This document shows, piece after piece, positions 15,716-38,760 of a DNA stretch of 40,068 nt. Positions within the stretch are counted from its first letter, which is position 1; every line of letters begins with the position of its first letter. Below the pieces are notes generated by a model. That model was not told where the DNA came from, did no database searches, and was given only the letters and a program-made list of their open reading frames with translations. The DNA comes from Synergistaceae bacterium. Its GTDB lineage: Bacteria > Synergistota > Synergistia > Synergistales > Synergistaceae. Both the position numbers and the translations under genes were made by a program. The stretch is from contig JAISYN010000095.1 in the NCBI GenBank assembly GCA_031269915.1, forward strand, positions 1-40,068, given 5' to 3'.

Positions 15716-15733
15716 CAAGGGTATCGGCGGGGG

Positions 15734-18201: not shown

Positions 18202-18576
18202 TTGAAGTGTTTTGAAGACGGTGGCTGGGTCAACCTCAGCGAACTCGGCATAGTGGAAATCGGGAATGACGAAGCGCTCATCACCGCGGCGCTTATCATA
18301 GTCGATGGCGAGCCCGGCGACGAAGAAGACGTTAAATATCCGGCTGGAGGTTCCGGAAAGTGCGGCGTCAAGCTGGTCGAGTCCGAAGGGGAAAAATTCC
18401 TTTTCATCTACGATGGGAAAAAAGATGGGATTGCGAGCGATCCGATCACTCTCGTAAACTTTGACGACGGTCCGGGGAGCGGTTCCGGCGGCGGGTGTGA
18501 CGCCGGCCTGAGTTTCGGCGCATTTGTCCTGCTCGCTGGAATGTTTCTGGTATCGCGCCGCGGCAAACGGCAATAG
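18202..18576 (+). CDS. ORF carrying a Synergist-CTERM-type C-terminal sorting signal; probably a 5'-truncated remnant of a surface protein
   Basis: The C-terminus GSGSGGGCDAGLSFGAFVLLAGMFLVSRRGKRQ has a Gly/Cys signature, a TM helix and a basic tail. The only start is a TTG with no SD, there is no N-terminal signal peptide, and the frame is open only from 18163. Confidence 0.4.
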   Translation: MKCFEDGGWVNLSELGIVEIGNDEALITAALIIVDGEPGDEEDVKYPAGGSGKCGVKLVESEGEKFLFIYDGKKDGIASDPITLVNFDDGPGSGSGGGCDAGLSFGAFVLLAGMFLVSRRGKRQ

Positions 18577-18608
18577 CTGGAACCGCCGCCAAACATATAA
18601 ACACAGCG

Positions 18609-18635
18609 GCCGGAGGTCAATTCCTCCGGCTTTTT
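18609..18635 (+). terminator. intrinsic terminator
   Basis: GCCGGAGG-tcaatt-CCTCCGGC followed by TTTTT, 33 nt after the stop at 18576. Confidence 0.65.
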
Positions 18636-18783
18636 CGTGAGTTCGGCGTTTTCTTCCGTTGTATCGCTCGTCATGCGCATGCCGCAAAATGTCATAATAA
18701 CCCGTGAAGCGCCATTATTTCCGGTATTGGCTGGAAAGTAAAACGCAAATCGGCACGGAATGAAATTTGCGCCCCGCACAAAA

Positions 18784-18812
18784 TTACCGTAAAAATTTTT
18801 TTAGGATATAAT
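18784..18812 (+). promoter_or_regulatory. sigma70-type promoter for ppdK (TTACCG-17 nt-TATAAT)
   Basis: Exact TATAAT at 18807-18812, with TTACCG 17 nt upstream, about 70 nt before the ppdK ATG. Confidence 0.5.
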
Positions 18813-18879
18813 ATGTGTGCGGAATTTGTTTCGCGCACAGCGCGAGCGACGGCGCAAAATATTTGAGGAGGTAACAGAT

Positions 18880-21513
18880 ATGGCAGATAAGAAGTACGTT
18901 TACGACTTCAACGAGGGCGACGCCAGCATGAAAGCCCTTCTTGGCGGCAAAGGGGCCAACCTTGCCCAGATGAGCAAGATAGGGCTTCCAGTGCCGCCCG
19001 GCTTCATCATAACGACAGAGGCCTGCAAGGCTTATTGGACGCAGGGCGCGAACCTGCTCGACGAAATATGGCCGGACGTCCTTTCCTCGGTTGCTCGCGT
19101 CGAAGCCTCCACCGGCAAAAAACTCGGTTCCCTCGACAATCCTCTGCTTGTCTCCGTCCGCTCCGGCGCGCCGGTGTCGATGCCGGGCATGATGGACACC
19201 ATATTGAATCTCGGGCTGAACGACGATACCGCCGAGGCTCTGGCGAAAGTATCGGGCGATCCCCGTTTCGCTTACGACAGTTACCGCAGATTCATACAGA
19301 TGTTCTCGGATGTCGTGCTCGATGTGAGCGCTGAATTGTTCGAGGAGAAACTCTCGGGCATCCGCAAATCGCTCGGCGTGGAATTCGATCACCAGATTCC
19401 GGCCGACTCACTCAAAAAGCTGATAATAACCTATAAAGAGATAGTGAAAGAGGCCGGAAAAGAATTCCCGACCGACCCCGAAAAACAGCTCCGTCTTGCC
19501 ATCGACGCCGTGTTCCGCAGTTGGAACACCCCGAGGGCAAACACTTACCGCAAGATAAACAACATATCGGCTGATCTGGGAACCGCCGTCAACGTGGTGT
19601 CCATGGTGTTCGGCAATCTGGGCGACGATTGCGGCACGGGCGTCTGTTTCACCCGCGACGGCGCGACCGGCGAAAACAAGCTTTACGGCGAATATCTGAT
19701 GAACGCTCAGGGAGAGGACGTCGTAGCCGGCATAAGAACTCCCAGCCCGATAGCCGAACTCGAAAAGGTCATGCCCGAAGTCTACAAGGAATTCTTCCGC
19801 ATAGCCAAGAATCTCGAAAATCACTACAAAGATATGCAGGATATAGAGTTCACCGTCGAGCGCGGCAAACTTTACATCCTCCAGACCCGCAACGGCAAAC
19901 GCACCGCCGCCGCCGAGGTCAAAATCGCGATGGACATGCTGCGCGAAGGTCTGATAGATACGCGGACCGCCGTGACGCGCGTGTCGCCCGATCAGGTGGA
20001 ACAGCTTCTTCACCCGCAGATAGATCCCAAAGCGAAATACAAGGCGCTTGCCAAAGGGCTTCCTGCGTCTCCGGGCGCAGCTGTCGGCGAGGTCGTGTTC
20101 GACGCCGACGAGGCCGCGGAAAAAGGCGCGAAAACCCCCGTCATACTCGTTCGTCCAGAGACCACTCCCGACGACATACACGGGCTGTTCGCGGCGCAGG
20201 GCGTTCTTACGACTCACGGCGGCATGACCAGCCACGCGGCCGTAGTGGCCCGAGGCATGGGCAAACCGTGCGTGTCGGGGGCCGAGACGGTGAAGATCGA
20301 CCTCAAGGCGCAGCAGTTCACAGTGGGCGGCGTGACCGTGAACAAGGGCGATTTCATATCGCTCGACGGTTCCAAGGGAGAGGTGATCGTCGGCAAGGTC
20401 CCGCTCATCGAAGCTCAGTTCTCCGACGACTTCAAAGCGCTGCTCGACAGCGCCGATAAGGAATCCAGGCTCGAAACCTGGGCAAACGCCGACACCCCCG
20501 AGGACGCGCGGCGCGCCCGCGAATTCGGCGCCCGCGGAGTGGGTCTCTGCCGCACTGAACACATGTTTATGGCGGCGGATCGCCTGCCCGCCATGCAGAA
20601 GATGGTGATCGCCTCCACGAAGGAGGAGCGCGTCAAAGCGCTTGCCAGCCTCGAACCGATGCAGCGGGAGGATTTCGTGGGTATTTTCGATGCCATGGAC
20701 GGTTTCCCCGTCATAATCCGCCTTCTGGATCCGCCGCTGCACGAGTTCCTGCCCAAGATACCCGAGTTGGAGAAAGAACTGGCCGAAGTCGGTCCCGGCA
20801 GCGCGCGCGGCGCGATAATCAAGACCGAGATAGCCCGCGCCAACGATCTGCACGAGATCAACCCCATGCTGGGCTTCAGGGGCTGCCGCCTCGGCATAGT
20901 CTATCCCGAGATATTCGAAATGCAGATACGCGCGATAATATCGGCGGCCTGCGAGGTTTCCCGCAAGGGCGGGACGGTTCACCCCGAGATAATGATGCCG
21001 CTCGTGGGCATCAAGGAAGAAATGCGCCGCCTCGAAGCGATGGCCCGGCATATAGCCGCCGAGGTCATGGAAAAAGAGAAGGTCAATGTCGGTTATAAAG
21101 TCGGCACGATGATAGAGGTCCCCCGCGCCGCGATGATAGCCGACGAAGTGGCCGAATACGCCGAGTTTTTCAGCTTCGGTACGAACGATCTCACCCAGAC
21201 GACCTACGGCTACTCCCGCGACGACGCCGAGAACAAATTCCTCGGTTTCTACGTCGAAGACGGAGTGGTGGAGCACAACCCCTTCCATGTTCTCGATAGA
21301 AATGGCGTCGGCGGTCTGATGAAGATAGCGAAGGAAAAGGGGCGTTCTGTCAGAGCGGATTTGAGCATAGGAATATGCGGAGAGCACGGTGGAAATCCGT
21401 CCAGCGTGGCTTTCTGCCACTCCCTCGGGCTCAATTACGTGAGCTGTTCCCCATTCCGCGTCCCGGTGGCCCGGCTCGCCGCCGCCCACGCGGCTTTAGG
21501 CAAGCTGAACTAG
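18880..21513 (+). CDS. ppdK: pyruvate, phosphate dikinase
   Basis: GAGGAGG precedes ATG 18880. Motifs: MADKKYVYDFNEGDASMKALLGGKGANLAQMSKIGLPVPPGF, the phospho-His motif TTHGGMTSHAAVVARGMGKPCV, and the C-terminal GLCRTEHMF...NDLTQ...CGEHGG. Confidence 0.95.
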   Translation: MADKKYVYDFNEGDASMKALLGGKGANLAQMSKIGLPVPPGFIITTEACKAYWTQGANLLDEIWPDVLSSVARVEASTGKKLGSLDNPLLVSVRSGAPVSMPGMMDTILNLGLNDDTAEALAKVSGDPRFAYDSYRRFIQMFSDVVLDVSAELFEEKLSGIRKSLGVEFDHQIPADSLKKLIITYKEIVKEAGKEFPTDPEKQLRLAIDAVFRSWNTPRANTYRKINNISADLGTAVNVVSMVFGNLGDDCGTGVCFTRDGATGENKLYGEYLMNAQGEDVVAGIRTPSPIAELEKVMPEVYKEFFRIAKNLENHYKDMQDIEFTVERGKLYILQTRNGKRTAAAEVKIAMDMLREGLIDTRTAVTRVSPDQVEQLLHPQIDPKAKYKALAKGLPASPGAAVGEVVFDADEAAEKGAKTPVILVRPETTPDDIHGLFAAQGVLTTHGGMTSHAAVVARGMGKPCVSGAETVKIDLKAQQFTVGGVTVNKGDFISLDGSKGEVIVGKVPLIEAQFSDDFKALLDSADKESRLETWANADTPEDARRAREFGARGVGLCRTEHMFMAADRLPAMQKMVIASTKEERVKALASLEPMQREDFVGIFDAMDGFPVIIRLLDPPLHEFLPKIPELEKELAEVGPGSARGAIIKTEIARANDLHEINPMLGFRGCRLGIVYPEIFEMQIRAIISAACEVSRKGGTVHPEIMMPLVGIKEEMRRLEAMARHIAAEVMEKEKVNVGYKVGTMIEVPRAAMIADEVAEYAEFFSFGTNDLTQTTYGYSRDDAENKFLGFYVEDGVVEHNPFHVLDRNGVGGLMKIAKEKGRSVRADLSIGICGEHGGNPSSVAFCHSLGLNYVSCSPFRVPVARLAAAHAALGKLN

Positions 21514-26848: not shown

Positions 26849-26876
26849 AAAAAAAGAGCCTTTGGGCTCTTTTTCC
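26849..26876. terminator. bidirectional terminator-like hairpin inside a divergent intergenic region
   Basis: AAAAAGAGCC-tttg-GGCTCTTTTT has an A-run on one side and a T-run on the other. It lies between the divergently transcribed PBP1A and cheV genes, where no terminator is expected. Confidence 0.45.
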
Positions 26877-26996
26877 GTTCCGTCTTTTTGGCATACCTGC
26901 TTTACCATATTTGTCTTATACTATAAAATAATATCAGCGATTTTCCCGCGTCTACGAGTGAAAAATCAGGTTGTATCAAAATGGGGAGTGATCGGC

Positions 26997-27935
26997 ATGG
27001 CACGAAGGACGGACGAAAAAATTCTCACTGAGGTTGGCACAAACGAATGGCAGGTCGTAGTTTTTCTGTTGGGCAGTCAATATTTCGCCATCAACGTTGA
27101 CAAGACGAGGGAAATACTCCGCTGGCCCGGCGTACGCGACGTACCGCAGACACACCCGGCAATGATCGGAATAACTACCATACGGGGCGAGGTAATACCT
27201 CTCATTGACCTCAGAGCCTATCTGGATATCACCCCTAGCGTCGAACGCGACGGCAGCAAGCTCATTGTGGCCGAGTTCAATAAGATGAAGCTGGGGTTCG
27301 TCGTAGACGCGGTTGACAGAATTTACCGAATCAATTCGGATGAGTTGGACGCGTCGTTGACCGGAACGTTTCTCGGCGAAAACGCCCTCTACGTCATAAA
27401 ACGAGAAGAGCGCAATATCCTTCTGCTCGACTACGAACGCATAGTGCAGGTGGTAAACCCGGGTCTCTCCGATCAGTTCAAGGTGGAGGGCAAAATATCA
27501 CCCAGTCTCACAAGCGGTCTTGGCGACCTCGACGAATACAAAATTTTGGTAGCGGAAGACTCCCCGCTCATCCGCAAATTGATACAGGACGTGCTGGTAT
27601 CGGGCGGTTTCCACAATTTCGAGGTGGTCGGGCACGGCAAGGCGGCTTGGGACAGACTGGTTGAGGATGGAGACGAGTTCGACATACTGCTGACGGACAT
27701 AGAGATGCCGAAGATGGACGGGCTCACTCTCACCCGCCGCGTCAAGGAGGATGAGCGGCTCTCCCGTATTCCGGTCATAGTCTTCTCCAGCGTTATGGCG
27801 GAGGATATCAAGCGCAAAGCGCAGAGCATAGGGGCTGATGCGCAGATTACAAAGCCCGAAATGCAAAACCTCCTTGGAAAAGTCATAGAGCTTTTGGGAA
27901 AAACCCCAAAGGCGGCCCGGCGTCTCGCTTCTTGA
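26997..27935 (+). CDS. cheV: chemotaxis protein CheV (CheW-like domain plus receiver domain)
   Basis: GGGGAG precedes ATG 26997. CheW-like region: WQVVVFLLGSQYFAINVDKTREIL...IRGEVIPLIDLR. REC domain: KILVAEDSPLIRKL...ILLTDIEMPKMDGLTLTRRVK...IPVIVFSS...GADAQITKP. Confidence 0.85.
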   Translation: MARRTDEKILTEVGTNEWQVVVFLLGSQYFAINVDKTREILRWPGVRDVPQTHPAMIGITTIRGEVIPLIDLRAYLDITPSVERDGSKLIVAEFNKMKLGFVVDAVDRIYRINSDELDASLTGTFLGENALYVIKREERNILLLDYERIVQVVNPGLSDQFKVEGKISPSLTSGLGDLDEYKILVAEDSPLIRKLIQDVLVSGGFHNFEVVGHGKAAWDRLVEDGDEFDILLTDIEMPKMDGLTLTRRVKEDERLSRIPVIVFSSVMAEDIKRKAQSIGADAQITKPEMQNLLGKVIELLGKTPKAARRLAS

Positions 27936-27997
27936 GGGGGGCGTCGAACAGGGGTATGTTTGGCGGCGTCTCGCGTCTCCCGTACTGGAGCCAAAAC

Positions 27998-28627
27998 ATG
28001 GAATTCGATATTGAGACGTGGGTGCCTTACAGGTGCGACTTCAAACCGATTACCACAAACTCGCTTTTCAGCGACGCGCTCGGCGATATCGCGGAGATGG
28101 CGATGATGCTGGACAGCGAGTTGCTGTATATGTGGAACGATGAAGACTGCCCGATCGGGACTCTCGTTCCTGAAAATCTGATACGGGCGCGTTGCGTGAC
28201 GGAACCGCACAGAGGGTTCGCGATCGTGTTCGCGTATTCCGAGGCTATGGAAAGAGCGCTGCACGGGCTTGGCGGATCCGGTTCATTGTTCGGGGCGGGC
28301 GTGACGTTCTGCGGTATTTGGAAAAGTTCCGTACTGCTCGACGAGTGCAAAGTCCTGGTCATAGCGAGCGTCAACCCGCTCTTTGACCACGAGGAGTTTC
28401 TGGGTTTTCTGAAAAACGAACTCTCCCGGCGCGGAAAGCCGGAAGGAAGAAGAATCCCCTATTTCGCCGAAAAATTCGGATTCAGAAGGTTTTCAATCCC
28501 CTATGAAACGGACGATGTCATAGAACTTCAGATATCGAACCTACTGATGGATTTCGAGTTTGACGAGACCAGGCGTTTTATCGGAATACCGCTCGAACTC
28601 TCGCTGGACGACTATCAGGAGGTATGA
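27998..28627 (+). CDS. hypothetical protein (about 209 aa)
   Basis: ATG 27998 lies 8 nt after GGAG. I recognise no strong family motif. FSDALGDIAEMAMM weakly resembles the CheC/CheX (D/S)xxxExxN segment, but with D..E in place of E..N. Confidence 0.5.
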   Translation: MEFDIETWVPYRCDFKPITTNSLFSDALGDIAEMAMMLDSELLYMWNDEDCPIGTLVPENLIRARCVTEPHRGFAIVFAYSEAMERALHGLGGSGSLFGAGVTFCGIWKSSVLLDECKVLVIASVNPLFDHEEFLGFLKNELSRRGKPEGRRIPYFAEKFGFRRFSIPYETDDVIELQISNLLMDFEFDETRRFIGIPLELSLDDYQEV

Positions 28628-28633: not shown

Positions 28634-29176
28634 GTGAAATACGACGACAGGCCGGATGTCTTCACAAAAGGCCGCGTTCAGGTATATACGGGCAACGGCA
28701 AGGGAAAGACTACCGCGGCCATTGGGCTTGCCGTAAGGGCTCTTGGAGCCGGAATCAAAGTTTTTTTCGCTCAATTCCTGAAATTGGGCGACTACAGCGA
28801 GATTCAAATATTGCGAAACCTCAAAAACGTAACGTGCCGTCAATACGGCGCCGGAGGCTTCGTCGGGTCCCATCCGTCCGACGAGGATAAAGCATCCGCG
28901 CGGCTCGGTATAGATGACGCGCTCAGCGCGATGAAAAGCGGCGATTACAGAGTCGTGATACTCGACGAAGCTAATGTGGCATACAGTCTTGGCCTGATAT
29001 CGAAAGAAGAATTGATGTCGCTGGTTCGCGAACGCCCGTCATCGGTGGAACTCGTTCTGACAGGCAGGGGCGCGCCGCATGAGCTGATAGAAGCCGCGCA
29101 TCTCGTGACCGAGATGCGCGAGATAAAGCATTATTTCAAATCCGGAGTAAAGGCCCGCAAGGGCATAGAGAGCTGA
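28634..29176 (+). CDS. cobO: cob(I)yrinic acid a,c-diamide / cob(I)alamin adenosyltransferase (CobO/BtuR type)
   Basis: GTG start. Motifs: GRVQVYTGNGKGKTTAAIGLAVRALGAG (P-loop), VILDEANVAYSLGLIS, LVLTGRGAP..LIEAAHLVTEMREIKH. Confidence 0.85.
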   Translation: MKYDDRPDVFTKGRVQVYTGNGKGKTTAAIGLAVRALGAGIKVFFAQFLKLGDYSEIQILRNLKNVTCRQYGAGGFVGSHPSDEDKASARLGIDDALSAMKSGDYRVVILDEANVAYSLGLISKEELMSLVRERPSSVELVLTGRGAPHELIEAAHLVTEMREIKHYFKSGVKARKGIES

Positions 29177-30967
29177 TCACGACAAAATGATAATTCCCGT
29201 CTCGTCTTCACCGTCCAGATACGCGGAGAAGTTTCCCTCGTATATCCTGACAGCCGGATGTCCGCCGACGGTATAATATGTCGTATCCAGCCATTCCTTA
29301 TTGTACTTGTTGCCTCCCTGTCTGCTGAAAACCGGCAGATACAAGATTCCATCGGAGTCCATGTCGAGGAAGAAGTGCGTTCCGAAGGACAATTCCGGGG
29401 AAAAATTTAGGTCGGGCACGCTTATCTCCGCCAATACCCCGCAGTTGCATATCTCGTCATATCTTACCGGCACGCCGAGCGCCGGGTTGCGGCTTCCCCA
29501 TCTGCCTGGACCGGCCAGTATATATTTCGTTCCGGTGAGGCGTTTGTTGGCCTCTCCAACCGCCCGCGCCGTTCCGGACGGATCCCAGTTGTTCTTGTAA
29601 AGGGCGGGGTCGACGTACACGAGATGAGTCACGTTTTCGAGCATTCCATTGCTTACCATCCTGTCGCCCTTGAAAATTATTTTTTCGTCCGGAGTCTCTG
29701 GAATCTCGATTCTGCTAAGCTCCTCATACGAAGCGAGCGGTCTCATCTGAAGGACGCTCAGTTTTTTTTTCGGCGCGGTTTCGTAAGAGAACTCGATATC
29801 GACGGGGAATCCGGTTGTGTCCTCCATGTATTTCAAAAGCGCTTTTGACGCGTCGAACAGCGCGCGTTCGCGTATATGCAGCTCGGGAAAAGAGAAAATG
29901 GGGCGTGTCGGCACCTCGGGGTCGGCCATGGTCGAGTATAGGAAATCGTCGCCGTAAAGCTGCACGTATACTCCGAAATTCTTGTGTTCTTTCATGAGAA
30001 ATCGGTAGAACATGGGGAGCGCTCCCGTTAAGAGCACGCCGTGATCCGTATCTATATAGTCGAAAAATTCCTGGCTCTCTTCCGCTATCTGCGACGGAAG
30101 GCTGCCTTCAGGGCGCAGCGACGGGTTTGTGAGGTAAAACGTGCGGGCGGCGCAGCGGTCGACGGATCGCGTTCCGAGCCCGAAGCATACCCTCATTAAA
30201 CCGTCTTCTTTTTTTATTCTCGGGTTGGGGCGGCGAAAAACACGCGAAAAGAGGGTTCCGGCCAGCTCTGGGTAATAGTAGCTTCCATGGCGTTTTCCGG
30301 CGACGGATTGCACTATCACGGCCATCGACTCTTTTGCCCCGAGCAGTCCGTGTTTTTCGCGGTAGGCCCTCGCCGATGGGTTGAAAACGGAGGAAAAGAC
30401 GGTGCGAACGGCTTTTTCCAGCATTGCGTACCGCTCGGAACGCGAACCTATGTTCGGTGAAAAGCAGGTCTGGTATTTGCCGGCGAAGGCAAGGGATATG
30501 GAATCCTCCAGCAGGGAACTGGAGCGTATCGCAAGCGGCGGAGCGCCAAGCGCGTCGAAGCGTTCCAATACTCGTTCCAGCTCGAGCTTCATATGAGGAG
30601 GGAACAACGTTTCGTATACCGCGCCTCGCGCGCGTTCCCAGTCTTCGTCCCCGAACGGGGCGTCGAGCCCGCTTCTGAAGATATAATCGTCGAACAGCTC
30701 GGTGGACAGCACTATGGTAAGGTCGGGAAAAACGACGACATCCCCGAGGGGAGAGCCTTCGAGCGCGCATATGGCGTACGCTATCCCTTTCGCTTTTCCG
30801 CCGCAGCGTCCGGCGCCTATTATGGTTTTCTTCTCCTGAAAATAATCTTCGGCACGGAAATCCCCGTAATCCACGAGCGGCATTTTCAAAGAGATTCCCC
30901 CTTTTTCGCGGCGGCCGCAAATGTGGTTCAGCCAATCATTAATGTGGTAAACTATATCATATTTCAT
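29177..30967 (-). CDS. PEP/pyruvate-binding (PPDK_N-type ATP-grasp) domain protein without a phospho-His swivel domain
   Basis: GAGRCGGKAKGIAYA and LAIRSSSLLEDSISLAFAGKYQT match the GGK...G and VRSS...ED....FAG motifs of PEP synthase/PPDK N-domains. No GGxTSHAA motif appears anywhere. The start is uncertain: ATG 30967 has no SD, and 30991 and 31063 are alternatives. Confidence 0.7.
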   Translation of the reverse strand: MKYDIVYHINDWLNHICGRREKGGISLKMPLVDYGDFRAEDYFQEKKTIIGAGRCGGKAKGIAYAICALEGSPLGDVVVFPDLTIVLSTELFDDYIFRSGLDAPFGDEDWERARGAVYETLFPPHMKLELERVLERFDALGAPPLAIRSSSLLEDSISLAFAGKYQTCFSPNIGSRSERYAMLEKAVRTVFSSVFNPSARAYREKHGLLGAKESMAVIVQSVAGKRHGSYYYPELAGTLFSRVFRRPNPRIKKEDGLMRVCFGLGTRSVDRCAARTFYLTNPSLRPEGSLPSQIAEESQEFFDYIDTDHGVLLTGALPMFYRFLMKEHKNFGVYVQLYGDDFLYSTMADPEVPTRPIFSFPELHIRERALFDASKALLKYMEDTTGFPVDIEFSYETAPKKKLSVLQMRPLASYEELSRIEIPETPDEKIIFKGDRMVSNGMLENVTHLVYVDPALYKNNWDPSGTARAVGEANKRLTGTKYILAGPGRWGSRNPALGVPVRYDEICNCGVLAEISVPDLNFSPELSFGTHFFLDMDSDGILYLPVFSRQGGNKYNKEWLDTTYYTVGGHPAVRIYEGNFSAYLDGEDETGIIILS

Positions 30968-30995
30968 TTTTTTGTGTGGTGAGGGAGGCATAATC

Positions 30996-32390
30996 TTGAA
31001 TCTTCCAAGATTGATAATAGCTGACGAGCAAAGACCCGGGAAAATAATGTCAGGCCTACTCATCGCGGCAACCCTGAAAAAGATGGGTTATAAGCTGAAG
31101 CTGTTTTTGGGCAATGTCGACGAAATATCCATCAGATTGCTTCAATTGCTCTGCGAGCAGCCTGTAACGCTGCTCGATCCGACGCTGTGCGACGGACGTG
31201 CGAATTTGAGATGGCTATTCCAGCAGGCGGCCTCGCCGGACTGCCTCAATCTCATTATAACCAGCCTTGGAGGCAAATGGACCGAGGATTCTCCGTTTCG
31301 CATTCCCAGGGAGTGCGGGCTGCTTGCCGAATGGCTCGAAAGCGAGATTGTACCGGTGCTTTACAGCGACTCATCCTCCACTCTCACTGTGCGCACTCTG
31401 AACGAAGTTGTGACTGGGTTTCAGCAAAACGGAAACATCGTGATACGTGCCGTATTGTTTCGTTCAACCCTGAACAACAGGGAATACGAGCTGCTCGACA
31501 GAGAGGTTGGCCGCCAGTTTATCATAATGCCGATTGGTTCCATATCCCAAAAAATCGACCGAAACGTTCCCCTTTTGACAGACCTGTTCTTTCAAGAAGC
31601 CGTAAAAGCCATCTTCCCCATAAAATCAGCCTACTTGCAATTGATGCATATGAATTATCAGGTGAATTGGATGATGTTCAGCGCTCTCGCGAACCTCAAT
31701 TCCGGCTGGCTGCCGCAAGCGAGGCTCTGCGAGCCGATAACCGACAGCGGGAAAGTCAACATCGCCGTCATCAGGCATGAAACGCTGACGCTGGGAGGCG
31801 ACGGCACCGAACATCTGATGCGCGCTCTTGGCTGCAATGTTGTGGAAGTATCTCTTGAAGGCCAAATAGTTCACAACGTCCCGATACACGGGGTGTATAT
31901 ACCTCATGGCCCATCGTACATGACCCTGCCCAAGTTTTTCTCCAATATTTATCTCAAGACGATGCTTAACAGGGCGTCGAGCGGGGGTTCGTTCATGCTG
32001 GCTGAAGGAGGGGCGGCGCCGGTACTGGGGGATAAAATCACTCTTCCGGATGGAGTGGCCGGAGGTGGTATGGGACGTGGTTTTGGCATACTTCCTTATG
32101 ACAGCCTGTATAAATCTTCGTCGCCAGGGGTTCCTCAAAAAAACGTGGCCGTCCGCAAGAGGATGAATCCCCTCATATCCGGTTCTCATGAATGGATATG
32201 GGGATACTCGTCGCCCAATCTCTCGCTGGAAAGCAAATCGCCGGACGACGAATGCTGGGAGACGCGGGAAAGCCTTGACGGTAAACAGTTGGGGGCTGAC
32301 GGTTGGTGCAAGGGAAGGATACTCTCTTCAGCGATGAGAATTGAGCCGTGGAGCGCTCCTTTTTCGTTCCGCCGGTGGCTGGAAGGATGA
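30996..32390 (+). CDS. cobyrinic acid a,c-diamide synthase (CbiA/CobB)-like protein with eroded catalytic motifs (probable pseudoenzyme)
   Basis: TTG lies 7 nt after GGAGG. It is collinear with CbiA: PRLIIADEQRPGKIMSGLLIAATLKKMGYKL against ..ILAGTGSGCGKTTVTLGLL..RGLRV; VNIAVIRHETL...YIPHGPSYM...FMLAEGGAAPVLG against LALA.DEAF.FYY...WLGGGYPEL...IYAECGGLMYLG. Confidence 0.65.
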   Translation: MNLPRLIIADEQRPGKIMSGLLIAATLKKMGYKLKLFLGNVDEISIRLLQLLCEQPVTLLDPTLCDGRANLRWLFQQAASPDCLNLIITSLGGKWTEDSPFRIPRECGLLAEWLESEIVPVLYSDSSSTLTVRTLNEVVTGFQQNGNIVIRAVLFRSTLNNREYELLDREVGRQFIIMPIGSISQKIDRNVPLLTDLFFQEAVKAIFPIKSAYLQLMHMNYQVNWMMFSALANLNSGWLPQARLCEPITDSGKVNIAVIRHETLTLGGDGTEHLMRALGCNVVEVSLEGQIVHNVPIHGVYIPHGPSYMTLPKFFSNIYLKTMLNRASSGGSFMLAEGGAAPVLGDKITLPDGVAGGGMGRGFGILPYDSLYKSSSPGVPQKNVAVRKRMNPLISGSHEWIWGYSSPNLSLESKSPDDECWETRESLDGKQLGADGWCKGRILSSAMRIEPWSAPFSFRRWLEG

Positions 32391-33556
32391 ACATTGGCGC
32401 GAAGATGCTCTCCGAAGCGGAGGGGATAGCGGGTGACCTTGTCGAGTGGCGCAGATATTTTCACCAGTTTCCGGAACTCGGCATGGAAGAACATATGACG
32501 TCGAGCAAGATAGAGGGGTTGCTTTCGTCCATGCCCGGCATGGAGGTAGTAAAGGGCTTTGCTCTCTCTACCTGTGTTGTGGGGAGGATAGGGGGTTCGC
32601 TTCCCGGCGGGGCTGTCGCGTTTCGTGCCGAGATGGATGCTGTGGAGGTTAGGGAGGATACGGGGCTGCCGTTCAGCTCCTATGACGAGGGAATCTCCCA
32701 TGTGCAGGGACACGACGCTCATATGGCGTCGTTGCTTGGTACGGCAGCTCTGCTCTCCGATCATCGGGACAGCCTCAAACATCCCGTCGTGTTCATCTTT
32801 CAGCCCGCAGATGAAGGCAAGGGCGGTTCGAGATATCTGCTCGACGCGGGTTTGCGGGAAAAATTCGGCATAGAAAAGATGCTTTGCGTCCATTGGGTTC
32901 CTTATCTGCCCTACGGACAGGTGTTTACAAACAAAGGCGGGATCACGGCCTTCACGAACAAGCTCCATATCGGCCTTTCCGGGCAGGGAGGTCACGGAGC
33001 GACGCCATATCTGACGGCCGATCCGCTGTATTTGTCGGCTTTGATACAGGTTACTCTTCAATCGGTCCTGATTCGCGAGGTCTCCCCTCAAAAGACGGCG
33101 GTACTGTCCTTTGGGCGCATCGAAGCGGCGGAAGTTTACAACGTCATCGCCAAAGAAGTCAATATGTGGGGCACGCTCCGTACGACGGATCGCGATACGA
33201 ACCGTTTTCTCAAACGGAGAATAGAGGATGTCGTCCGTGCGATGGCGCATATAGCGCACATATCCGCTGCGGTCGAATATACGCTTGATTATGGGCAGGT
33301 GGTGAACGACGGCGAATTGGTGTCCGATATATTTGAAGCCGGCACTGCTCTCATAGGCAGCGACGGCATGTGCCCGCTGAAAGAGCCTCTCCTGGTCGGA
33401 GAGGATTTCTGCTATTTCGCTGAAAGAATACCTTCCTGTATGATGTTTCTCGGCACTGGGATGGAATACGGATTGTACCATGCCAGGTACGACATACCGG
33501 AAAACCTGCTGCCTTTCGCTTCGGCGTGGGGCGCGTATCTTGCTATGTCCCTCTGA
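32387..33556 (+). CDS. M20D-family amidohydrolase (N-acyl-amino acid amidohydrolase / hippurate hydrolase-like)
   Basis: ATGA overlap with the upstream stop. Motifs: LVEWRRYFHQFPELGMEE, FRAEMDAV, GHDAHMASLLG, FIFQPADEG, GQGGHGATP, VGEDFCYF. Confidence 0.85.
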   Translation: MNIGAKMLSEAEGIAGDLVEWRRYFHQFPELGMEEHMTSSKIEGLLSSMPGMEVVKGFALSTCVVGRIGGSLPGGAVAFRAEMDAVEVREDTGLPFSSYDEGISHVQGHDAHMASLLGTAALLSDHRDSLKHPVVFIFQPADEGKGGSRYLLDAGLREKFGIEKMLCVHWVPYLPYGQVFTNKGGITAFTNKLHIGLSGQGGHGATPYLTADPLYLSALIQVTLQSVLIREVSPQKTAVLSFGRIEAAEVYNVIAKEVNMWGTLRTTDRDTNRFLKRRIEDVVRAMAHIAHISAAVEYTLDYGQVVNDGELVSDIFEAGTALIGSDGMCPLKEPLLVGEDFCYFAERIPSCMMFLGTGMEYGLYHARYDIPENLLPFASAWGAYLAMSL

Positions 33557-33585
33557 CTTGCGGGCGGCACGGGAGGAGTTATGTT

Positions 33586-35061
33586 TTGTTGAATGACAGA
33601 CTTGACGAGATGATTATGCGGGGGTGCTCGGCATACCCTACCGAACCTTGCCTGTGGTGGCACGGGGAGTGGTGGTCCAGGGGCGCGCTCGACGAAATGG
33701 TAATGGAATGCGAGGACAATTTGGTCCAAAGCGGTTTTTCGGCCGGTCAGAGATTGGGCTTGGTCATGCCGAACAGTCCTCTGCTGCTTGCGAGCTGTGT
33801 CGCCGCATGGCGGCTTGGCGGAGCTGTCGTTCCGGTGAACCCCCAATTGAAATACCCGCACATCTCGGAATATCTGAAAAGCGTCGATGTATTTGGCGTG
33901 GTGGTGAACCGTGAAATAGATTTTATCGCCGACAAGCTGGTAGAAGCCGGAATACCGGCCGCGGTAGCCGGACAGGGAGACGCGATCCCCACAATGGAAG
34001 GCAGACAGGGCATTCCGGACCCCGATTCTAAACTTGCGGCACTGTTTCATACAAGCGGAGCAGGCGGGGTTGTAAAGGCCGTCCCGATAACTCACGAAAA
34101 CATCGTCACTCTTCTTTCGTCTATTTTGGAAGCCATTTCCGGCATGAACGAGGACGATGTCATATTGAACGCTATACCGAACTATCATTCACTTGGTTTC
34201 GTGGTCGGAGGGATAATGCCGCTTGCGGCCGGAATACCGCAGGTGCTCGTTTCTTCTTTCACGCCGCCCAAAAACGCGCTTAATGCCATACGTCTGGCCG
34301 GCGTGACCATAATACCCGCGGTGCCCGTAATGCTCAGTATTCTGCTGAGCGGGGCGAATATGACTCCGATGTCGAAAGTGAAGCTGGTGTTCTATGGCGG
34401 AGGAGAACTCATGCCCGGCGTCGCGGAGAGGGCGAAGGAGATATTCGGCGTGACTCCTCTCCCCGGCTACGGCCTCACTGAAGCGTCCAGCGTCCTCGCG
34501 GTCACTCCGTCGGAGGGCTCGATAAAGCCTGGGACGTCCGGCAAAATATTGCCATGTTTCGATGCCAAAGTAATCGGTCCTGACGGCGAGCCTCTCCCTT
34601 TCGGCGCGGACGGCATGCTGTGGATACGCGGCGGAGCGCTCGCTTCCGGATATTACAGAACGCCTGAGATATCGTCCGAGAGATTCCGCGACGGCTGGTT
34701 CGACACGCAGGATGTTGTGAGAATCGATGAATACGGCTATATAACCATAGCCTCTCCCGCTGTGGATGTGATGACTATAGAGGGAATGGCGGTCTATCCG
34801 GGCGAGATAGAGGCGGTGCTGAAATCCCATCCCCATATAGCGGAAGCCGCCGTGATAGGGTTGCCGCGAGGACAAAAAGGGGAATACGCGCGAGCTTATG
34901 TCGTGCTGAAGGAAGGAAGCTCGCTGCGCCCCAAAGATATAATCATGTACGGGCGAAGCCGCCTGCCCAATTACAAGGCGCCGAGGTCGGTCAGGATACT
35001 TCCGGAACTTCCGGCCGACAGTTTGGGCAAGGTGCTCAGGCACGAACTCAGATCGCTCTGA
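33586..35061 (+). CDS. AMP-dependent synthetase/ligase (acyl-CoA synthetase-like adenylate-forming enzyme)
   Basis: TTG lies 9 nt after GGGAGG. Motifs: LFHTSGAGGVVKAV (A3-like), GYGLTEAS, GWFDTQDV, LPADSLGKVLRHEL (A10 Lys). Confidence 0.85.
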   Translation: MLNDRLDEMIMRGCSAYPTEPCLWWHGEWWSRGALDEMVMECEDNLVQSGFSAGQRLGLVMPNSPLLLASCVAAWRLGGAVVPVNPQLKYPHISEYLKSVDVFGVVVNREIDFIADKLVEAGIPAAVAGQGDAIPTMEGRQGIPDPDSKLAALFHTSGAGGVVKAVPITHENIVTLLSSILEAISGMNEDDVILNAIPNYHSLGFVVGGIMPLAAGIPQVLVSSFTPPKNALNAIRLAGVTIIPAVPVMLSILLSGANMTPMSKVKLVFYGGGELMPGVAERAKEIFGVTPLPGYGLTEASSVLAVTPSEGSIKPGTSGKILPCFDAKVIGPDGEPLPFGADGMLWIRGGALASGYYRTPEISSERFRDGWFDTQDVVRIDEYGYITIASPAVDVMTIEGMAVYPGEIEAVLKSHPHIAEAAVIGLPRGQKGEYARAYVVLKEGSSLRPKDIIMYGRSRLPNYKAPRSVRILPELPADSLGKVLRHELRSL

Positions 35062-35064
35062 CGA

Positions 35065-35850
35065 ATGGACGGACATCCGCTCTGTTTTATCTTCGATGAC
35101 TCGTCGGAGGGCCGCGTGTTGTGCAAACCGGACGGCGGGCTGCTCTCACCGGAAGAGGCCGGCGGTTTAGAGGGATATTTCGAAACGGGCGGAATGGTAT
35201 TGAAGCGTCAGCCATGCGATACTTGGGGCCTGCTTAAATTTGGCTCCGACGTGCATGGGCGGGACGAATATACTTTTGTAAGCAGAAGAAGTTTCTCCGA
35301 TAAGGGAGACGATCTTTTCAGGCGAGCCGGAGTCGCTTTTCAGATGATGCGACTGCGCCTTAAAAATAAATACTGCGGCGTCTGTGGAGGCGTTATGGCC
35401 GATCACGAACAGGATCGGGCAAGGGTTTGCCCTTCGTGCGGAAATGTCGTGTATGCAGCGCCGGCGCCGGCCGTGATAGTAGCCGTTGAAAAAGACGGAG
35501 AGATACTTCTGGGACACAATGTCAATTTCCCCAAGGGACGCTACAGCGTTATCGCGGGCTTCGTGGATCCTGGGGAAACCTTGGAAGAGACAGTGGCCCG
35601 CGAAGTCTTTGAGGAATCCCGAGTCCGAATAAAAAATATACGCTACTTCGGAAGCCAGCCGTGGCCTTTCCCAAACTCTATGATGTTCGGTTTCACTGCC
35701 GATTGGGAAAGCGGCGATCCTACGCCGGACGGCGGCGAACTAAGCGACGTCCGCTGGTTCAAACCGAGCGCCTTGCCCGACCTTCCTCCATCGGTAAGCA
35801 TATCGAGAAAACTTATCGACGGCTGGCTTGAAAGATCGCGAAATAAATAG
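35065..35850 (+). CDS. nudC: NAD(H) pyrophosphatase / NAD-cap decapping Nudix hydrolase NudC
   Basis: Zinc ribbon: CGVCGG...CPSCGN. Nudix box: GFVDPGETLEETVAREVFEESRV. NudC-specific motif: SQPWPFPNS. Confidence 0.85.
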   Translation: MDGHPLCFIFDDSSEGRVLCKPDGGLLSPEEAGGLEGYFETGGMVLKRQPCDTWGLLKFGSDVHGRDEYTFVSRRSFSDKGDDLFRRAGVAFQMMRLRLKNKYCGVCGGVMADHEQDRARVCPSCGNVVYAAPAPAVIVAVEKDGEILLGHNVNFPKGRYSVIAGFVDPGETLEETVAREVFEESRVRIKNIRYFGSQPWPFPNSMMFGFTADWESGDPTPDGGELSDVRWFKPSALPDLPPSVSISRKLIDGWLERSRNK

Positions 35851-35974: not shown

Positions 35975-36892
35975 GTGATAAAGATTGGAAAAAAATTCGT
36001 AACCTATGCGCAAGAATTTGAGGATTGTATTTTATTTTGCGTTCTGAACTGGATTGAAAAAGGGTTTTATGTAGACGTTGGCGCGAACGATCCTGCAATT
36101 CTTTCAGTGACCAAAGCGTTTTACGATCGTGGATGGAACGGAATAAACATCGAGCCGTTGCGGGAGGAATACAGCAAACTCTGTCGTGACCGACCACGCG
36201 ATATCAATCTGAACATTGGCGTCGGCGGAGAAAACGGAGAGAAGGAATTTGCGGTTTTGGGCGCGAGTACGACCTGTGATATGGATGAAATACTTAAATT
36301 ACAAGATGAAATTGGCGTATTGAATAAGAAGATTTTACCAATAAGGAAATTATCTGATGTATTACGGGAATACGAGGATGAACACGGAAAACAAACAATA
36401 CATTTTTGCAAGATAGATGTGGAAGGATCGGAAAGAGACGTACTCGAAGGTATGAATCTTGAAGCCTGCAGGCCATGGGTTATGCTGCTTGAAGCTGCCT
36501 TTCCAGGTACACATATGCCAAACCATGATAGATGGGAAGATTTGCTGGTCGGCAACGGATATGAATATGTTTTCTCCTACGGAATCAATAGATATTACGT
36601 CGACACGCGCCTGGACCGCGGAACGCTCTTGAGACTGCGGGACGGTTTTCGCGACGCCGAACTGTGCGGAAAGGGCGAATATGACTTTGTAAGGCAATCT
36701 AATCCTGACAAAATATTGAACGGTTATATGCTATTACGTTTTACGCGTGATTTTATCAAAAAGATTGCCCTAGGCGAAATAACTTTTAATGAATACATAA
36801 CGCGTCGCAGAGCGATTAAAGTTTTCGCCAATATTCCATTGTTAAAGGAAATAGAGTGGTTTGGTAAATTTATTCTGCTGCGCAGGGATTAG
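35975..36892 (+). CDS. FkbM-family SAM-dependent methyltransferase
   Basis: Motifs: AQEFEDCILF...GFYVDVGANDP...SVTKAFYDRGWNGINIEP...KIDVEGSERDVLEGM. The GTG start overlaps the GGAGG, so the exact start is uncertain. Confidence 0.75.
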   Translation: MIKIGKKFVTYAQEFEDCILFCVLNWIEKGFYVDVGANDPAILSVTKAFYDRGWNGINIEPLREEYSKLCRDRPRDINLNIGVGGENGEKEFAVLGASTTCDMDEILKLQDEIGVLNKKILPIRKLSDVLREYEDEHGKQTIHFCKIDVEGSERDVLEGMNLEACRPWVMLLEAAFPGTHMPNHDRWEDLLVGNGYEYVFSYGINRYYVDTRLDRGTLLRLRDGFRDAELCGKGEYDFVRQSNPDKILNGYMLLRFTRDFIKKIALGEITFNEYITRRRAIKVFANIPLLKEIEWFGKFILLRRD

Positions 36893-36963: not shown

Positions 36964-38760
36964 TTACACGGCGAATTTCGCTACTTGCCCCTGCATATCG
37001 TTCGCGATAACGGACAAGTTTTTGCTGAAGTCCTCTATTTTCCCGACGCTTGCCGATTGATCCTGAGTCACACAGGCGATGCCCTTCGCGGCGCCGAGTG
37101 TCTTGGAACAGATATTGCCCAGCTCACCGGCGACATCCTGAACGACTCGGCTTGACTCGGAAAGTTCTTTCGCCACGGAGGTGATTTTTTGGATTTCCTG
37201 GTCCAGTTCTCTGATGTTGGCGATGATTTTTTCCAGAACCTCGCTGTTTTGAGTGACTACCGCCACGCCTTTTTCCGACTCGGTCACGCCGATATTCATC
37301 AGATCCACCGTGCCGTCCGCGTCCTGCTGGAGTTCGAGGATCTCCTGGGTTATTTTTTCCGTAGCTTGCCGCGACTGTTCCGCCAGCTTTCGAACCTCTT
37401 CCGCCACGACGGCAAACCCCCGTCCCTGCTCGCCCGCTCTTGCCGCTTCTATCGCCGCGTTGAGAGCCAGAAGGTTGGTCTGAGCTGAGATTCCGTTGAT
37501 AAGTTCCACTATCTCGTTGATCTTTTTGAATTTTTCTCCCAGGCTTTTCACAGCCTCGGCAGTCTTTTTCGTGGTCTCGGAAATATGATCCATTTGCGCT
37601 ATCGCTCCGCTCAGGGATCTGCTCCCTTCCTCCGCCATAGCTGAGGTCTGAACGGATTTGTCGGATATTTTCGCGCTGCCGGACGCTACATCTTCGATTC
37701 CTCCGCCAATCTCGTCAATCGCCTTAGTCATATTTTCGACAGCATACATCTGCGCCTGCGCGTCTCTCGCGATTTCTTCGGCGGAACCAGCCACTTCGCG
37801 GGCGGAGCGTGCCGACTGCTCAGAGTTTTCCAGCAGCACGCCGCTCGTGCCGAACAATTCTTCGGCGGACTCGTTGAGCTGTTTCAACAACCCGGCAAGG
37901 TTCTCCGCCATATCTTTCATAGATTTTCTGAGCGCGCCTATCTCATCCCGCCGTGAATCTTCTTCTATTTTAACGGCGAAGTTGCCCTGCGCCACTTCGG
38001 CCGACAGCTCGCTCAGCTCCATAATAGGCTTCACAAACCTTTTTGTGTAAGCGAAAGTGAGACACAAGACCACAATGAAAAGGGCCAGAAATCCGGTCAC
38101 CGTATAAATGAGCAAACGGTTGATGAAAGCCTGCGCTTCCTTCTGCCAGTTGGCAATCTGAGCGTCAATCGCGGCGTTCCAGTCCTCGGTCCAGAATCCT
38201 GTTCCAATGACCCACTTCCAAGGTTTGTATTCGATGGAATAGCCGATTTTTTGCTTGCCCTCGGTTTCACCGGGTTTTTCATAGAAAAATTCCGTGAAAT
38301 CGCCTCCTCGCATTCCCGACTCAATGATCGCGCGGATCATCTCCATATTGTTGGCATCAAGCGCTTTTATGCGGTTTTTCCCCTCTATCTGCGGCGTAAT
38401 GGGATGAAGGACATTATTTCCATTCGTCTCGTCAATCCAGAAATAATTTCCTCCCTGCAACGCTTTATTGTCCGTATCATACCGTATAACCCTGATTTGT
38501 TCTTTCGCCTGTTCCTGCGCTTCTTTTAACGAAAGATTCCCGTCTCTCACCTGCCTGTCGAAATACTCGAAAAGTGATGAGAAGGCGATAGTGATGTTCT
38601 TCATGCTTTCTTTCTGCACATCGAACAGAGATTGTCTGGTGTAGCGCAAATTTTGCTCATAATTCGCCCGTATCTCGTAAATCTGAAACACGACGGCGAA
38701 AATCATCACCGAGACCAGAATGGCGGCGATGGAGAATGTTAATTTATACCGTAAGCTCAT
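36964..38760 (-). CDS. methyl-accepting chemotaxis protein with a periplasmic sCache_2-like sensor, HAMP and MA domains
   Basis: GGGAGGG lies 8 nt before the ATG. It has an N-terminal TM helix, the Cache motif [27 protein letters not shown], a second TM helix, HAMP (PIMELSE..AQGNF) and a signalling domain ([37 protein letters not shown]). Confidence 0.9.

Follow-up and report, generated by a model that had tools for sequence, protein, structure and literature searches.

The stretch of DNA analyzed here, hereafter the window, is 40,068 nucleotides (nt) long and comes from contig JAISYN010000095.1 of a Synergistaceae bacterium; the gene block under study lies at positions 28,634 to 35,850. At its left end, a CobO/CobA/BtuR-type ATP:corrinoid adenosyltransferase gene (28,634 to 29,176, plus strand; PF02572) meets the gene for a 570-amino-acid (570-aa) PPDK_N-type ATP-grasp protein (29,177 to 30,889, minus strand; PF01326). 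A divergent control region of 106 nt (30,890 to 30,995), which contains a near-invariant 22-nt element without strand (30,942 to 30,963), separates the PPDK_N gene from a four-gene operon on the plus strand. The operon begins with a disabled homologue of CbiA that we call psCbiA (464 aa; 30,996 to 32,390) and continues with an M20D-family amidohydrolase (32,387 to 33,556; TIGR01891), an ANL-superfamily adenylate-forming ligase (33,589 to 35,061, with an alternative start at TTG 33,586; PF00501 and PF13193), and, as its last gene, a NudC-type NAD(H) diphosphatase (35,065 to 35,850; NF001299).

The gene junctions, read directly from the open reading frame map, bear out nearly all of the layout described in the original prediction. 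The cobO and PPDK_N genes are indeed tail to tail with zero spacer, since the CobO stop codon TGA (29,174 to 29,176) abuts base 29,177, which opens the reverse-complement stop of the PPDK_N gene. The TTG start of psCbiA at 30,996 has the expected ribosome-binding site, GGGAGG, 7 nt ahead of it; psCbiA and the M20D gene share the predicted translational overlap, ATGA at 32,387 to 32,390; and the NudC ATG at 35,065 follows the ligase gene after the 3-nt gap that had been noted. For the ligase, either TTG 33,586 or TTG 33,589 is preceded by GGGAGGAG, and with the M20D gene ending at 33,556 the gap is the predicted 29 nt if the first is used and 32 nt if the second is; the orthologue from Thermanaerovibrio velox aligns with the ligase from 33,589. 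One element of the layout had to be replaced, namely, a 597-aa ATP-grasp gene starting 28 bp from the operon. The homologous PPDK_N proteins are 568 to 580 aa long and align from residue L59 or M61 of the long open reading frame in the window, and a GGGGGA ribosome-binding site lies ahead of TTG 30,889, so the gene is placed at 29,177 to 30,889 and the divergent spacer measures 106 nt. Starts that would give proteins of 597 or 628 aa are ruled out on the same grounds. A consensus scan for promoters and terminators returned counts not above those of shuffled sequence and was uninformative.

Conservation was surveyed in the window's own lineage, which we call clade A, using loci from 25 species-level genomes, all of them Synergistaceae metagenome-assembled genomes, together with individual look-ups of homologues; related loci are cited by number (L001 and so on). 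The genome scan used a narrower alignment and is therefore biased toward clade A, for which a metagenome scan with another alignment compensates; that scan gave 45 further loci, which with individual look-ups cover the lineages outside clade A. Within clade A more than 20 independent contigs carry the block. The divergent pair of PPDK_N and psCbiA genes is present in all 22 loci that cover the junction, M20D and ligase genes are found in every locus long enough to hold them, down to 46% identity in psCbiA, and all surroundings outside the block vary from locus to locus. Lack of synteny in other genomes would have spoken against the predicted gene neighborhood, and the block proved syntenic in many Synergistaceae loci. 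What had been proposed as a six-gene set is better described as a strictly conserved core of five genes, with CobO adjacent in only 13 of 21 clade A loci. Nor was a close, characterized orthologue found for any protein of the module.

Selection on these genes is uniformly purifying. Ratios of nonsynonymous to synonymous substitution rates (dN/dS; Nei-Gojobori method) were 0.10 to 0.21 for psCbiA, 0.05 to 0.08 for the M20D gene, 0.08 to 0.13 for the ligase, 0.12 to 0.20 for NudC, 0.06 to 0.18 for the PPDK_N gene, and 0.10 to 0.21 for CobO, with dS reaching up to 2.7. Two PPDK_N values outside this range (0.79 and 2.44) are artifacts of an over-long query that read through upstream stop codons. 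Because the ratios lie between 0.05 and 0.21, the module genes behave as working genes, and we are confident that the module is real and functional.

The space between the two divergent transcription units carries its own signature of conservation. When the 22 clade A spacers were aligned by eye, a single block was near invariant, reading ATGTGGTAAACTATA(C/T)CAT(C/A)AT at 30,942 to 30,963 of the window, and the remainder varied in sequence and in length (83 to 277 nt). The element occurs once and in the same place in nearly every clade A locus (it is degenerate in L025), and it occurs once in the window versus 0.00 occurrences expected by chance. It holds an imperfect palindrome, TGGTA-N5-TACCA, and resembles an extended -10 motif on both strands, with TGGTAAACT on one and TGGTATAGT on the other. 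An element of this composition may be a bidirectional promoter and possibly also an operator for a GntR/MocR-type factor. The shared palindrome is the best evidence on the point, and it suggests joint regulation of the PPDK_N gene and the operon in clade A.

At the head of the operon, psCbiA keeps the two-domain architecture of CbiA and CobB, a SIMIBI/DTBS-like N-terminal domain followed by a GATase_3 C-terminal domain. The AlphaFold2 (AF2) model has a predicted local distance difference test score (pLDDT) of 92.9, and Foldseek matches its N-terminal half to the SIMIBI NTPases HypB, FleN, and NifH and its C-terminal half to the class I glutaminases GatD and HisH. A profile alignment with hhalign pairs psCbiA with canonical CbiA over its full length (probability of 97.7%, 436 columns, 19% identity). 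In sequence searches, psCbiA matched no Pfam family, scored 20.8 bits against the CobB model NF002204 (cut-off of 254), and, used as a profile, found nothing in the PDB.

The erosion of catalytic motifs described in the original prediction extends to the Walker A Ser/Thr, the glutaminase Cys, and the catalytic His, all of which are lost. In the Walker A motif (GxxGxGK[ST]), GxGKT has become RPGKI (ADEQRPGKI in the window); the Lys is not conserved across the psCbiA family, and the Ser/Thr is missing in all members. The glutaminase motif AECGG has become AEGG, with Gly where the Cys nucleophile would be; GHxFH has become WGYSS; HLHF is gone, with R/E standing for HLH; and the GGGYPE of CbiA has given way to IPHG. 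The losses of catalytic residues are common to every full-length member of the family down to an E value of 2e-44, and canonical CbiA sequences enter the profile search only from about 1e-18. Two acidic residues on the substrate side, D42 and D61, are kept; in CbiA they correspond to the first Asp of the GPDYID motif and to the Asp in NLD. The family also has invariant motifs of its own (PRLIIADE, NPREYQLLE.E.GR, Y.PHG, and W…RWL), of which the first three are missing from CbiA, and it has no invariant Ser. It comprises 101 to 106 clusters at 90% identity, with 38 representatives at an E value of ≤1e-30 among 1.84 billion representatives, and its organisms are Synergistota wherever the source gives a name. 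Sources label its members "hypothetical protein" or "cobyrinic acid a,c-diamide synthase," and the second label is wrong. Judged by its sequence, psCbiA is a descendant of cobyrinic acid a,c-diamide synthase that appears incapable of binding or hydrolyzing ATP through Walker A, of hydrolyzing glutamine, and of ATP- and glutamine-dependent amidation, and therefore of CbiA chemistry. We infer that it either holds a ligand or serves as a scaffold subunit, or else is an enzyme whose new active site is formed from the family-specific invariant residues.

The two genes that follow are recognizable members of large families with altered active-site motifs. The M20D amidohydrolase scores 270.4 bits against TIGR01891 (cut-off of 153.75), both its catalytic and its dimerization domains are matched (PF01546 and PF07687), and its nearest PDB entries are YxeP, Sapep, ILL2, and N-acyl-glutamine aminoacylase. 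It does read HVQGHD instead of HACGHD, as had been noticed. The Cys of HxCGHD, which we take from the ILL2 and Sapep structures to be a metal ligand of M20D enzymes, is replaced by Gln in all clade A proteins (HVQGHD or HAQGHD throughout), and the general-base Glu is Asp (ADEG) in the window's closest relatives; the remaining metal ligands, namely, the His of HxCGHD, the Glu of EE, and two other His residues, are retained, leaving the ligand set incomplete. The ligase matches PF00501 (200 bits) and PF13193 (66 bits), and closest to it in the PDB are feruloyl-, malonyl-, and fatty-acyl-CoA synthetases, with E values of about 1e-48. It carries the unusual P-loop that had been reported, TSGAGGVVKA at motif A3 in place of [ST]SG[ST][TS]GxPKG, and deviates further at A7 (TQD for TGD) and A8 (SPAVD, with the A8 Arg missing), and it retains A5 (YGLTE, for YGxTE) and the A10 Lys (GK). 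Across clade A, A3 follows the pattern T[SA]G[AV][GS]Gx[VPA]KA, often with Asp; A7 is mostly TQD (AQD in four loci and TLD in L001) and A8 mostly SPxxD; A5 is kept, and the A10 Lys mostly so. Outside clade A, in contrast, the M20D metal site reads H[AG]CGHD (HAAGHD in L037, L038, and L040) with Glu as the general base (AEEG), and the ligases have TSGT[TSG]GxPK[AVSL] at A3, TGD at A7 (TED in L035 and L042), [DSAE]RxxD at A8, and both A5 and the A10 Lys (Glu in L035 and L042). Since these orthologues in other Synergistota are canonical, the erosion of M20D and ligase motifs is a derived trait of clade A. The claim that every member of the set except NudC is motif divergent is thus correct for the window's lineage, but for the M20D and ligase proteins it does not hold family-wide.

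Three of the five proteins in the core lack textbook catalytic residues, and such losses could mark genes in decay, either pseudogenes or genes under relaxed selection with no remaining function. We regard this explanation as barely credible. In more than 20 genomes every reading frame remains open, the AF2 models have high confidence, and the derived residues are themselves conserved, HVQGHD or HAQGHD in all clade A loci and TQD and SPxxD in most. The dN/dS values of 0.05 to 0.21, at dS values of up to 2.7, contradict a pseudogene or relaxed-selection reading, which we rejected.

Across the control region, the ATP-grasp protein presents the opposite picture of intact motifs beside an unclassified domain. 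It matches PF01326 (E value of 2.6e-32, 112.9 bits) and keeps the ATP-grasp motifs GGKA, RSSxxxED..FAGK, VQ, and DIEF...QMRP intact and invariant. Its description as a "PPDK_N only" protein was accurate, as the Pfam scan found a single PPDK_N domain and neither the phosphohistidine swivel domain (PF00391) nor the PEP/pyruvate domain (PF02896). The conserved C-terminal portion of about 180 aa (GPGRWGS…ELSFGTHFFLDMD) contains an invariant GTH motif and has no Pfam or PDB sequence match at an E value of ≤10. Reading it as a divergent phosphohistidine swivel domain finds no support in its sequence, and the predicted beta-alpha-beta order is no obvious fit. The AF2 model (pLDDT of 87) has as its top Foldseek matches rifampin phosphotransferase, PEP synthase, the split-kinase subunit HpeI (PDB 9goj), and PPDK. 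As the window also encodes a complete three-domain pyruvate phosphate dikinase (PPDK_N, PEP-utilizers, and PEP-utilizers_C; 18,817 to 21,513, plus strand), the PPDK_N-only protein is a paralogous extra copy and not the cell's PPDK.

The outermost genes of the block encode NudC and CobO. NudC scores 227.1 bits against NF001299 (cut-off of 158) and displays every signature of its family, including the Nudix box, four zinc-ribbon Cys residues, and SQPWPFPNS, so that it is as canonical as had been stated; the Nudix box, SQPWPFPxS, and the four Cys residues are conserved in 16 loci. Its gene is part of the operon in 17 of the 19 clade A loci with room for it, starting 3 to 40 nt past the ligase, and is missing in L010 and L015. 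CobO matches PF02572 (E value of 8e-62, 208.9 bits) and falls just under two NCBIfam cut-offs (181.3 versus 185 and 155.8 versus 167.75). It is the last gene of a unit that also encodes a CheW-response-regulator fusion and a 231-aa protein of no assigned family, and it forms a transcription unit separate from, and convergent with, the PPDK_N gene. Where the PPDK_N gene has CobO as its neighbor, the genes upstream of CobO belong to at least three different sets (the CheW fusion with the 231-aa protein, methyl-accepting chemotaxis proteins, or a 360-aa unknown protein); in L001 an Opp transporter takes the place of CobO beside the block, and in the L018-L030 subgroup zinc-ribbon and TPR genes do so. 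CobO is thus an optional neighbor of the module. The 231-aa gene (27,932 to 28,627, plus strand) has no Pfam, NCBIfam, or PADLOC match and is translationally coupled to the CheW fusion (26,862 to 27,935), with CobO following; the trio is conserved in five to seven close relatives. Downstream of NudC lie genes for an FkbM-family methyltransferase (35,975 to 36,892, plus strand) and a Cache/HAMP methyl-accepting chemotaxis protein (36,964 to 38,760, minus strand), neither of which is kept beside the module elsewhere.

In the wider Synergistota the same parts occur in modular combinations. The arrangement psCbiA–M20D–ligase–CitC, with MocR and CitX farther along, is found in T. velox DSM 12556 and at least eight other loci; psCbiA–M20D–ligase is followed by an RfaE-like kinase in L070, L073, L080, and L081. 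Shorter versions comprise psCbiA–M20D–kinase (L043, L045, and L047), psCbiA–ligase–kinase (L003, L048, L056, and L083), psCbiA–ligase (L062, L074, and L079), psCbiA alone (at least 11 loci), and M20D–ligase–CitC without psCbiA (L037 and L040). NudC belongs to the operon only in clade A. Outside that clade the operon is usually followed by a convergent HAD hydrolase, a MocR regulator, and a 77-aa protein, and in about 27 loci a bona fide AsnRS (558 bits) is divergent from psCbiA, with a conserved element, (T)TAGTGTATCATA, in the spacer between them. The original prediction of a dedicated pathway therefore holds in that the module is conserved and syntenic, but not in the sense of one obligatory six-gene pathway. 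At the edge of L003 we also noted a SECIS_4 selenocysteine-insertion element (17,746 to 17,780, minus strand; 41.6 bits, above the gathering score).

The PPDK_N gene also reappears outside clade A, and it stands near psCbiA in three different arrangements overall. In about a dozen of the AsnRS loci it is co-transcribed downstream of AsnRS, with a junction that is either a gap of 20 to 36 nt or an overlap (L035, 8,727 to 11,743; L037, L040, L042, L048, and others). In L070, L072, and L073, psCbiA is preceded on its own strand by one or two PPDK_N paralogues; the PPDK_N-only pairs in L070 (3,900 to 8,633) and L073 stand in tandem, share 50% and 36% identity with the window protein, and are placed directly after an ApgM-type, phosphoglycerate-mutase-like gene and before RluD. 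The adjacency to ApgM hints at a role of the PPDK_N family in central carbon or phosphoryl metabolism.

The motif changes of clade A coincide with the presence of NudC in the slot held elsewhere by CitC or a kinase, the loss of AsnRS, HAD, and MocR from the neighborhood, the appearance of the palindrome, and the adjacency of CobO. These coinciding changes, together with strong purifying selection, make the whole operon look neofunctionalized in one lineage and not decaying. In the history we propose, an ancestral operon, still seen elsewhere as psCbiA–M20D–ligase–CitC or with an RfaE-like kinase and with canonical motifs, would have been re-tooled in the window's lineage: NudC would have taken the CitC or kinase slot, the M20D metal Cys would have become Gln, ligase motifs A3, A7, and A8 would have been altered, AsnRS, HAD, and MocR would have left, and CobO would have become a neighbor.

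As to function, our tentative preference is for a scaffold-led pathway acting on an adenylate-linked amide or carboxylate, a reading that we consider possible though not probable. The operon would handle a small metabolite in which an amide or carboxylate is joined to an adenylate or ADP-linked moiety, and psCbiA would be its ligand-holding or scaffold subunit. The M20D protein would open an amide bond, the ligase would bind or activate the carboxylate so released, NudC would cleave a dinucleotide-type pyrophosphate, and the ATP-grasp protein would supply phosphoryl transfer. The main reason for thinking that a nucleotide-linked moiety is involved is that the slot after the ligase always holds an adenylate or sugar-phosphate enzyme, which according to lineage is a CitC-like nucleotidyltransferase/ligase, an RfaE-like kinase, or NudC. 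A corrinoid or nucleotide-loop precursor is one candidate substrate, not an established one.

Several observations weigh against a scaffold-led pathway. The parts are separable, since psCbiA is often monocistronic and the M20D, ligase, and CitC genes occur without it. The altered M20D and ligase motifs could mean that both proteins are no longer catalysts, and NudC, missing in L010 and L015, could be a mere co-transcribed housekeeping gene. The PPDK_N gene is found in other Synergistota within a housekeeping synteny block (AsnRS, GDH, RluD, HD, ApgM, and SerA), so its adjacency to psCbiA may be partly inherited and not selected. Taken further, these observations lead to the main competing explanation, neighborhood by descent, in which only psCbiA, M20D, and ligase are functionally tied, for example, in N-acyl amino acid catabolism. 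The M20D protein would split its substrate into an acid and an amino acid, the ligase would make the acyl-CoA, and PPDK_N, CobO, and NudC would be housekeeping leftovers of an ancestral Synergistota synteny block. Synergistota are amino acid fermenters; the nearest solved relatives of the M20D protein are N-acyl-amino-acid hydrolases, and those of the ligase are acyl-CoA synthetases; the PPDK_N gene is elsewhere co-transcribed with AsnRS or placed beside ApgM; and outside clade A, NudC is not in the operon. However, descent does not readily account for a PPDK_N–psCbiA pair retained with a near-invariant palindrome in all 22 clade A loci despite rearranged surroundings, for NudC following the ligase so closely in 17 of 19 loci, or for coordinated motif changes that are unlike an ordinary pair of aminoacylase and CoA ligase. 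We judge neighborhood by descent to be somewhat unlikely.

A corrinoid role had been offered as speculation in the original prediction, and the evidence on it is divided. In such a scheme, psCbiA would keep the corrin-binding scaffold of CbiA and present a corrinoid to its partners for salvage or remodeling; the M20D protein would be a CbiZ-like amidase, the ligase would reactivate a propionate carboxylate, CobO would adenosylate the product, and NudC would cleave an intermediate linked to ADP or GDP, for example, AdoCbi-GDP or the alpha-DAD formed from NAD+ by CobT. Alpha-DAD is said to need a still-unidentified pyrophosphatase, and a NudC-type enzyme could cleave it. The descent of psCbiA from CbiA/CobB and its retention of D42 and D61 are in keeping with this scheme, as is the way that CobO adjacency survives differing genes upstream of CobO. 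CbiD lies directly after NudC in two loci (L019 and L022) and 4.5 kb downstream in a third (L030), and a PduO-type adenosyltransferase gene is found two to three genes from a distant psCbiA-like clade. Alpha-DAD itself has been proposed as an intermediate of B12 metabolism (Maggio-Hall and Escalante-Semerena 2003, as cited in PMC4657239), which also favors a corrinoid role. In L019, an anaerobic cbi/hem cluster (15,115 to 20,060; CbiD, a tetrapyrrole methylase, a CbiG-methylase fusion, and a SirC-HemC fusion) begins 244 nt past NudC, with no detectable cobalamin riboswitch.

Against a corrinoid role, the 40-kb window contains no cob, cbi, or btu gene other than CobO, and the cobalamin riboswitch that might have been expected nearby did not appear even at a permissive threshold. 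Rfam searches returned no relevant RNA element in the window at the gathering threshold, in the region from 26.5 to 37.2 kb at an E value of ≤1, or in seven related loci. In the 45 metagenome loci of other clades there was no match to CobO, CbiD, CbiG, PduO, or CitG. Within clade A, CobO is not beside the block in L001 and the L018-L030 subgroup, and where it does adjoin the PPDK_N gene it is convergent and separately transcribed. The idea remains speculative and the link to corrinoids circumstantial; overall, we consider a corrinoid salvage or remodeling role unlikely.

The CitC and CitX genes seen outside clade A raise the further idea of a carrier-protein or prosthetic-group system. Here, CitG would make 2'-(5''-phosphoribosyl)-3'-dephospho-CoA and CitX would attach it, CitC and/or the ANL ligase would load an acyl group on the thiol, and in clade A NudC would cleave the dephospho-CoA pyrophosphate. 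CitC (TIGR00124, 264 bits versus a cut-off of 262) overlaps or abuts the ligase in T. velox, L037, L040, and at least eight metagenome loci; CitX is in the same locus, three or more genes away; and no citDEF genes lie within the flanks covered by gene tables or family scans. One CitG homologue lies 14 kb upstream of the block in the window, and another lies beside the distant psCbiA-like clade. CitC and CitX, however, are not in the window's lineage and may belong to a citrate lyase whose genes lie elsewhere in the genome. The scores of CitX and of the CitG in the window are under their family cut-offs, no acyl-carrier protein was identified, and psCbiA lacks an invariant Ser. This makes a prosthetic-group system improbable. 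The CitG/MdcB-like triphosphoribosyl-dephospho-CoA synthase of the window (about 14,475 to 15,326, plus strand; 189 to 191 bits against cut-offs of 272 to 282) is an orphan, lying between an SLT transglycosylase and a radical-SAM gene with no citrate lyase or malonate decarboxylase genes nearby.

The distant clade just mentioned suggests yet another chemistry, in which psCbiA-family proteins would be accessory factors for a nickel-pincer-type, NAD-derived cofactor and NudC would interconvert its dinucleotide and mononucleotide forms. In this clade, a psCbiA-like gene 27% identical to that of the window overlaps by 4 nt a gene matching NF052526, "putative NPN-dependent ornithine cyclodeaminase" (601 bits, cut-off of 440), and NudC is an NAD(H)-type dinucleotide hydrolase. 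Ornithine cyclodeaminases reportedly use a nickel-pincer adenine dinucleotide (Desguin 2025, as cited in PMC13524815). Yet the link involves the most distant clade only; no LarB, LarC, or LarE turned up in gene tables and general family scans, none of which was aimed at lar genes; and in L033 and L034 the cyclodeaminase is a 67-aa stub while the psCbiA-like gene persists. We rate a nickel-pincer role as very improbable. The loci of this clade (L005, 8,829 to 11,386; L032, 3,666 to 6,217) also hold genes for a PduO-type adenosyltransferase, CitG, RpiR, PfkB, and arginase nearby, and the pairing with a cyclodeaminase suggests that psCbiA-family proteins can partner quite different enzymes. A role in anti-phage defense was rejected, since PADLOC gave only a weak Nudix match (22 bits).

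A bolder form of the scaffold-led pathway can be drawn from these comparisons. It would have psCbiA act as a dead-enzyme substrate holder that nucleates a complex of the ATP-grasp phosphotransferase, the re-tooled M20D and ANL proteins, and NudC, devoted to salvage or remodeling of a nucleotide-linked cofactor such as a corrinoid, alpha-DAD, or a nickel-pincer-type dinucleotide. So specific a version is doubtful, and slightly more so than the corrinoid role by itself.

Comparison with characterized systems places the module beside several of them. With CbiA/CobB, and the related CfbB and CobQ/CbiP, psCbiA shares the full-length architecture, a DTBS/MinD-like SIMIBI N-terminal domain with a GATase_3 domain of class I glutaminase fold, but it lacks Walker A, the ECGG Cys, and the GHxFH and HLHF His residues and has invariant motifs of its own; it also lies outside any cbi operon and without a riboswitch, cbi genes being adjacent in three loci only, downstream of NudC. 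GatD/MurT offers a likeness in that Foldseek ranks GatD first among structural matches to the C-terminal half of psCbiA (E value of 6e-8) and in that a GATase_3-fold protein stands beside a separately encoded carboxylate-activating ligase. GatD, however, is an active glutaminase with Cys and His, and its partner is of the Mur-ligase type, not ANL. The ATP-grasp protein resembles the split hydroxyphenylethanone kinase HpeHI (PMC12167813), the likewise split phenylphosphate synthase, and rifampin phosphotransferase in having a PPDK_N domain detached from the PEP/pyruvate domain. Those enzymes carry the PF00391 swivel domain, on a partner or on the same chain, whereas none is detectable in the PPDK_N protein or its neighbors, and the unclassified 180-aa domain with its GTH motif is present instead.

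The likeness to the adenosylcobinamide amidohydrolase CbiZ and to CbiR is conceptual only, in that a corrinoid amide could be opened by an amidohydrolase encoded beside an adenosyltransferase; the sequences are unrelated, M20D has a different fold, and riboswitch, btu, and cob context are absent here. The accessory proteins CitC, CitX, and CitG of citrate lyase and malonate decarboxylase have CitC and CitX homologues in the orthologous operon of other Synergistota, but nothing nearby encodes the structural subunits of the lyase or decarboxylase or the acyl-carrier protein, and the CitX and CitG scores are below cut-off. Searches of the literature turned up no account of the psCbiA family and, in agreement with the original prediction, none of the gene set. 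Each component has a known fold; the novelty lies in the pseudoenzyme family, the C-terminal domain of the PPDK_N protein, the module, and its lineage-wide re-tooling.

Other genes of the window lie at a distance from the block. Between 123 and 5,312 (plus strand) are two consecutive aconitase-family large/small subunit pairs, a PNPOx-like flavoprotein, and an isocitrate/isopropylmalate dehydrogenase, which may form a homocitrate or isopropylmalate-type chain-elongation set. A second M20-family peptidase/amidohydrolase (10,175 to 11,347, minus strand) is found beside an Na+/H+ antiporter-family transporter and a lactate permease.

The psCbiA proteins form a small unannotated family that JGI pipelines mislabel as cobyrinic acid a,c-diamide synthase, an error that could inflate predictions of B12 biosynthesis in Synergistota, and the PPDK_N protein flags an uncharacterized class with a new C-terminal domain. 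Clade A and the T. velox-type orthologues, which retain canonical motifs, provide a ready comparison for enzymology. Provided that the module functions as a single unit, it would offer a clear natural example of a pathway organized around a pseudoenzyme, with a B12 amidotransferase fold kept for binding and not for catalysis, and of coordinated re-tooling of two neighboring enzymes in a single lineage. Should the corrinoid or dinucleotide-cofactor reading be true, the module could supply missing cobamide steps in gut anaerobes, such as an alpha-DAD pyrophosphatase, and should psCbiA prove to be a substrate holder, these Synergistota would possess a cofactor-handling route without a described counterpart.

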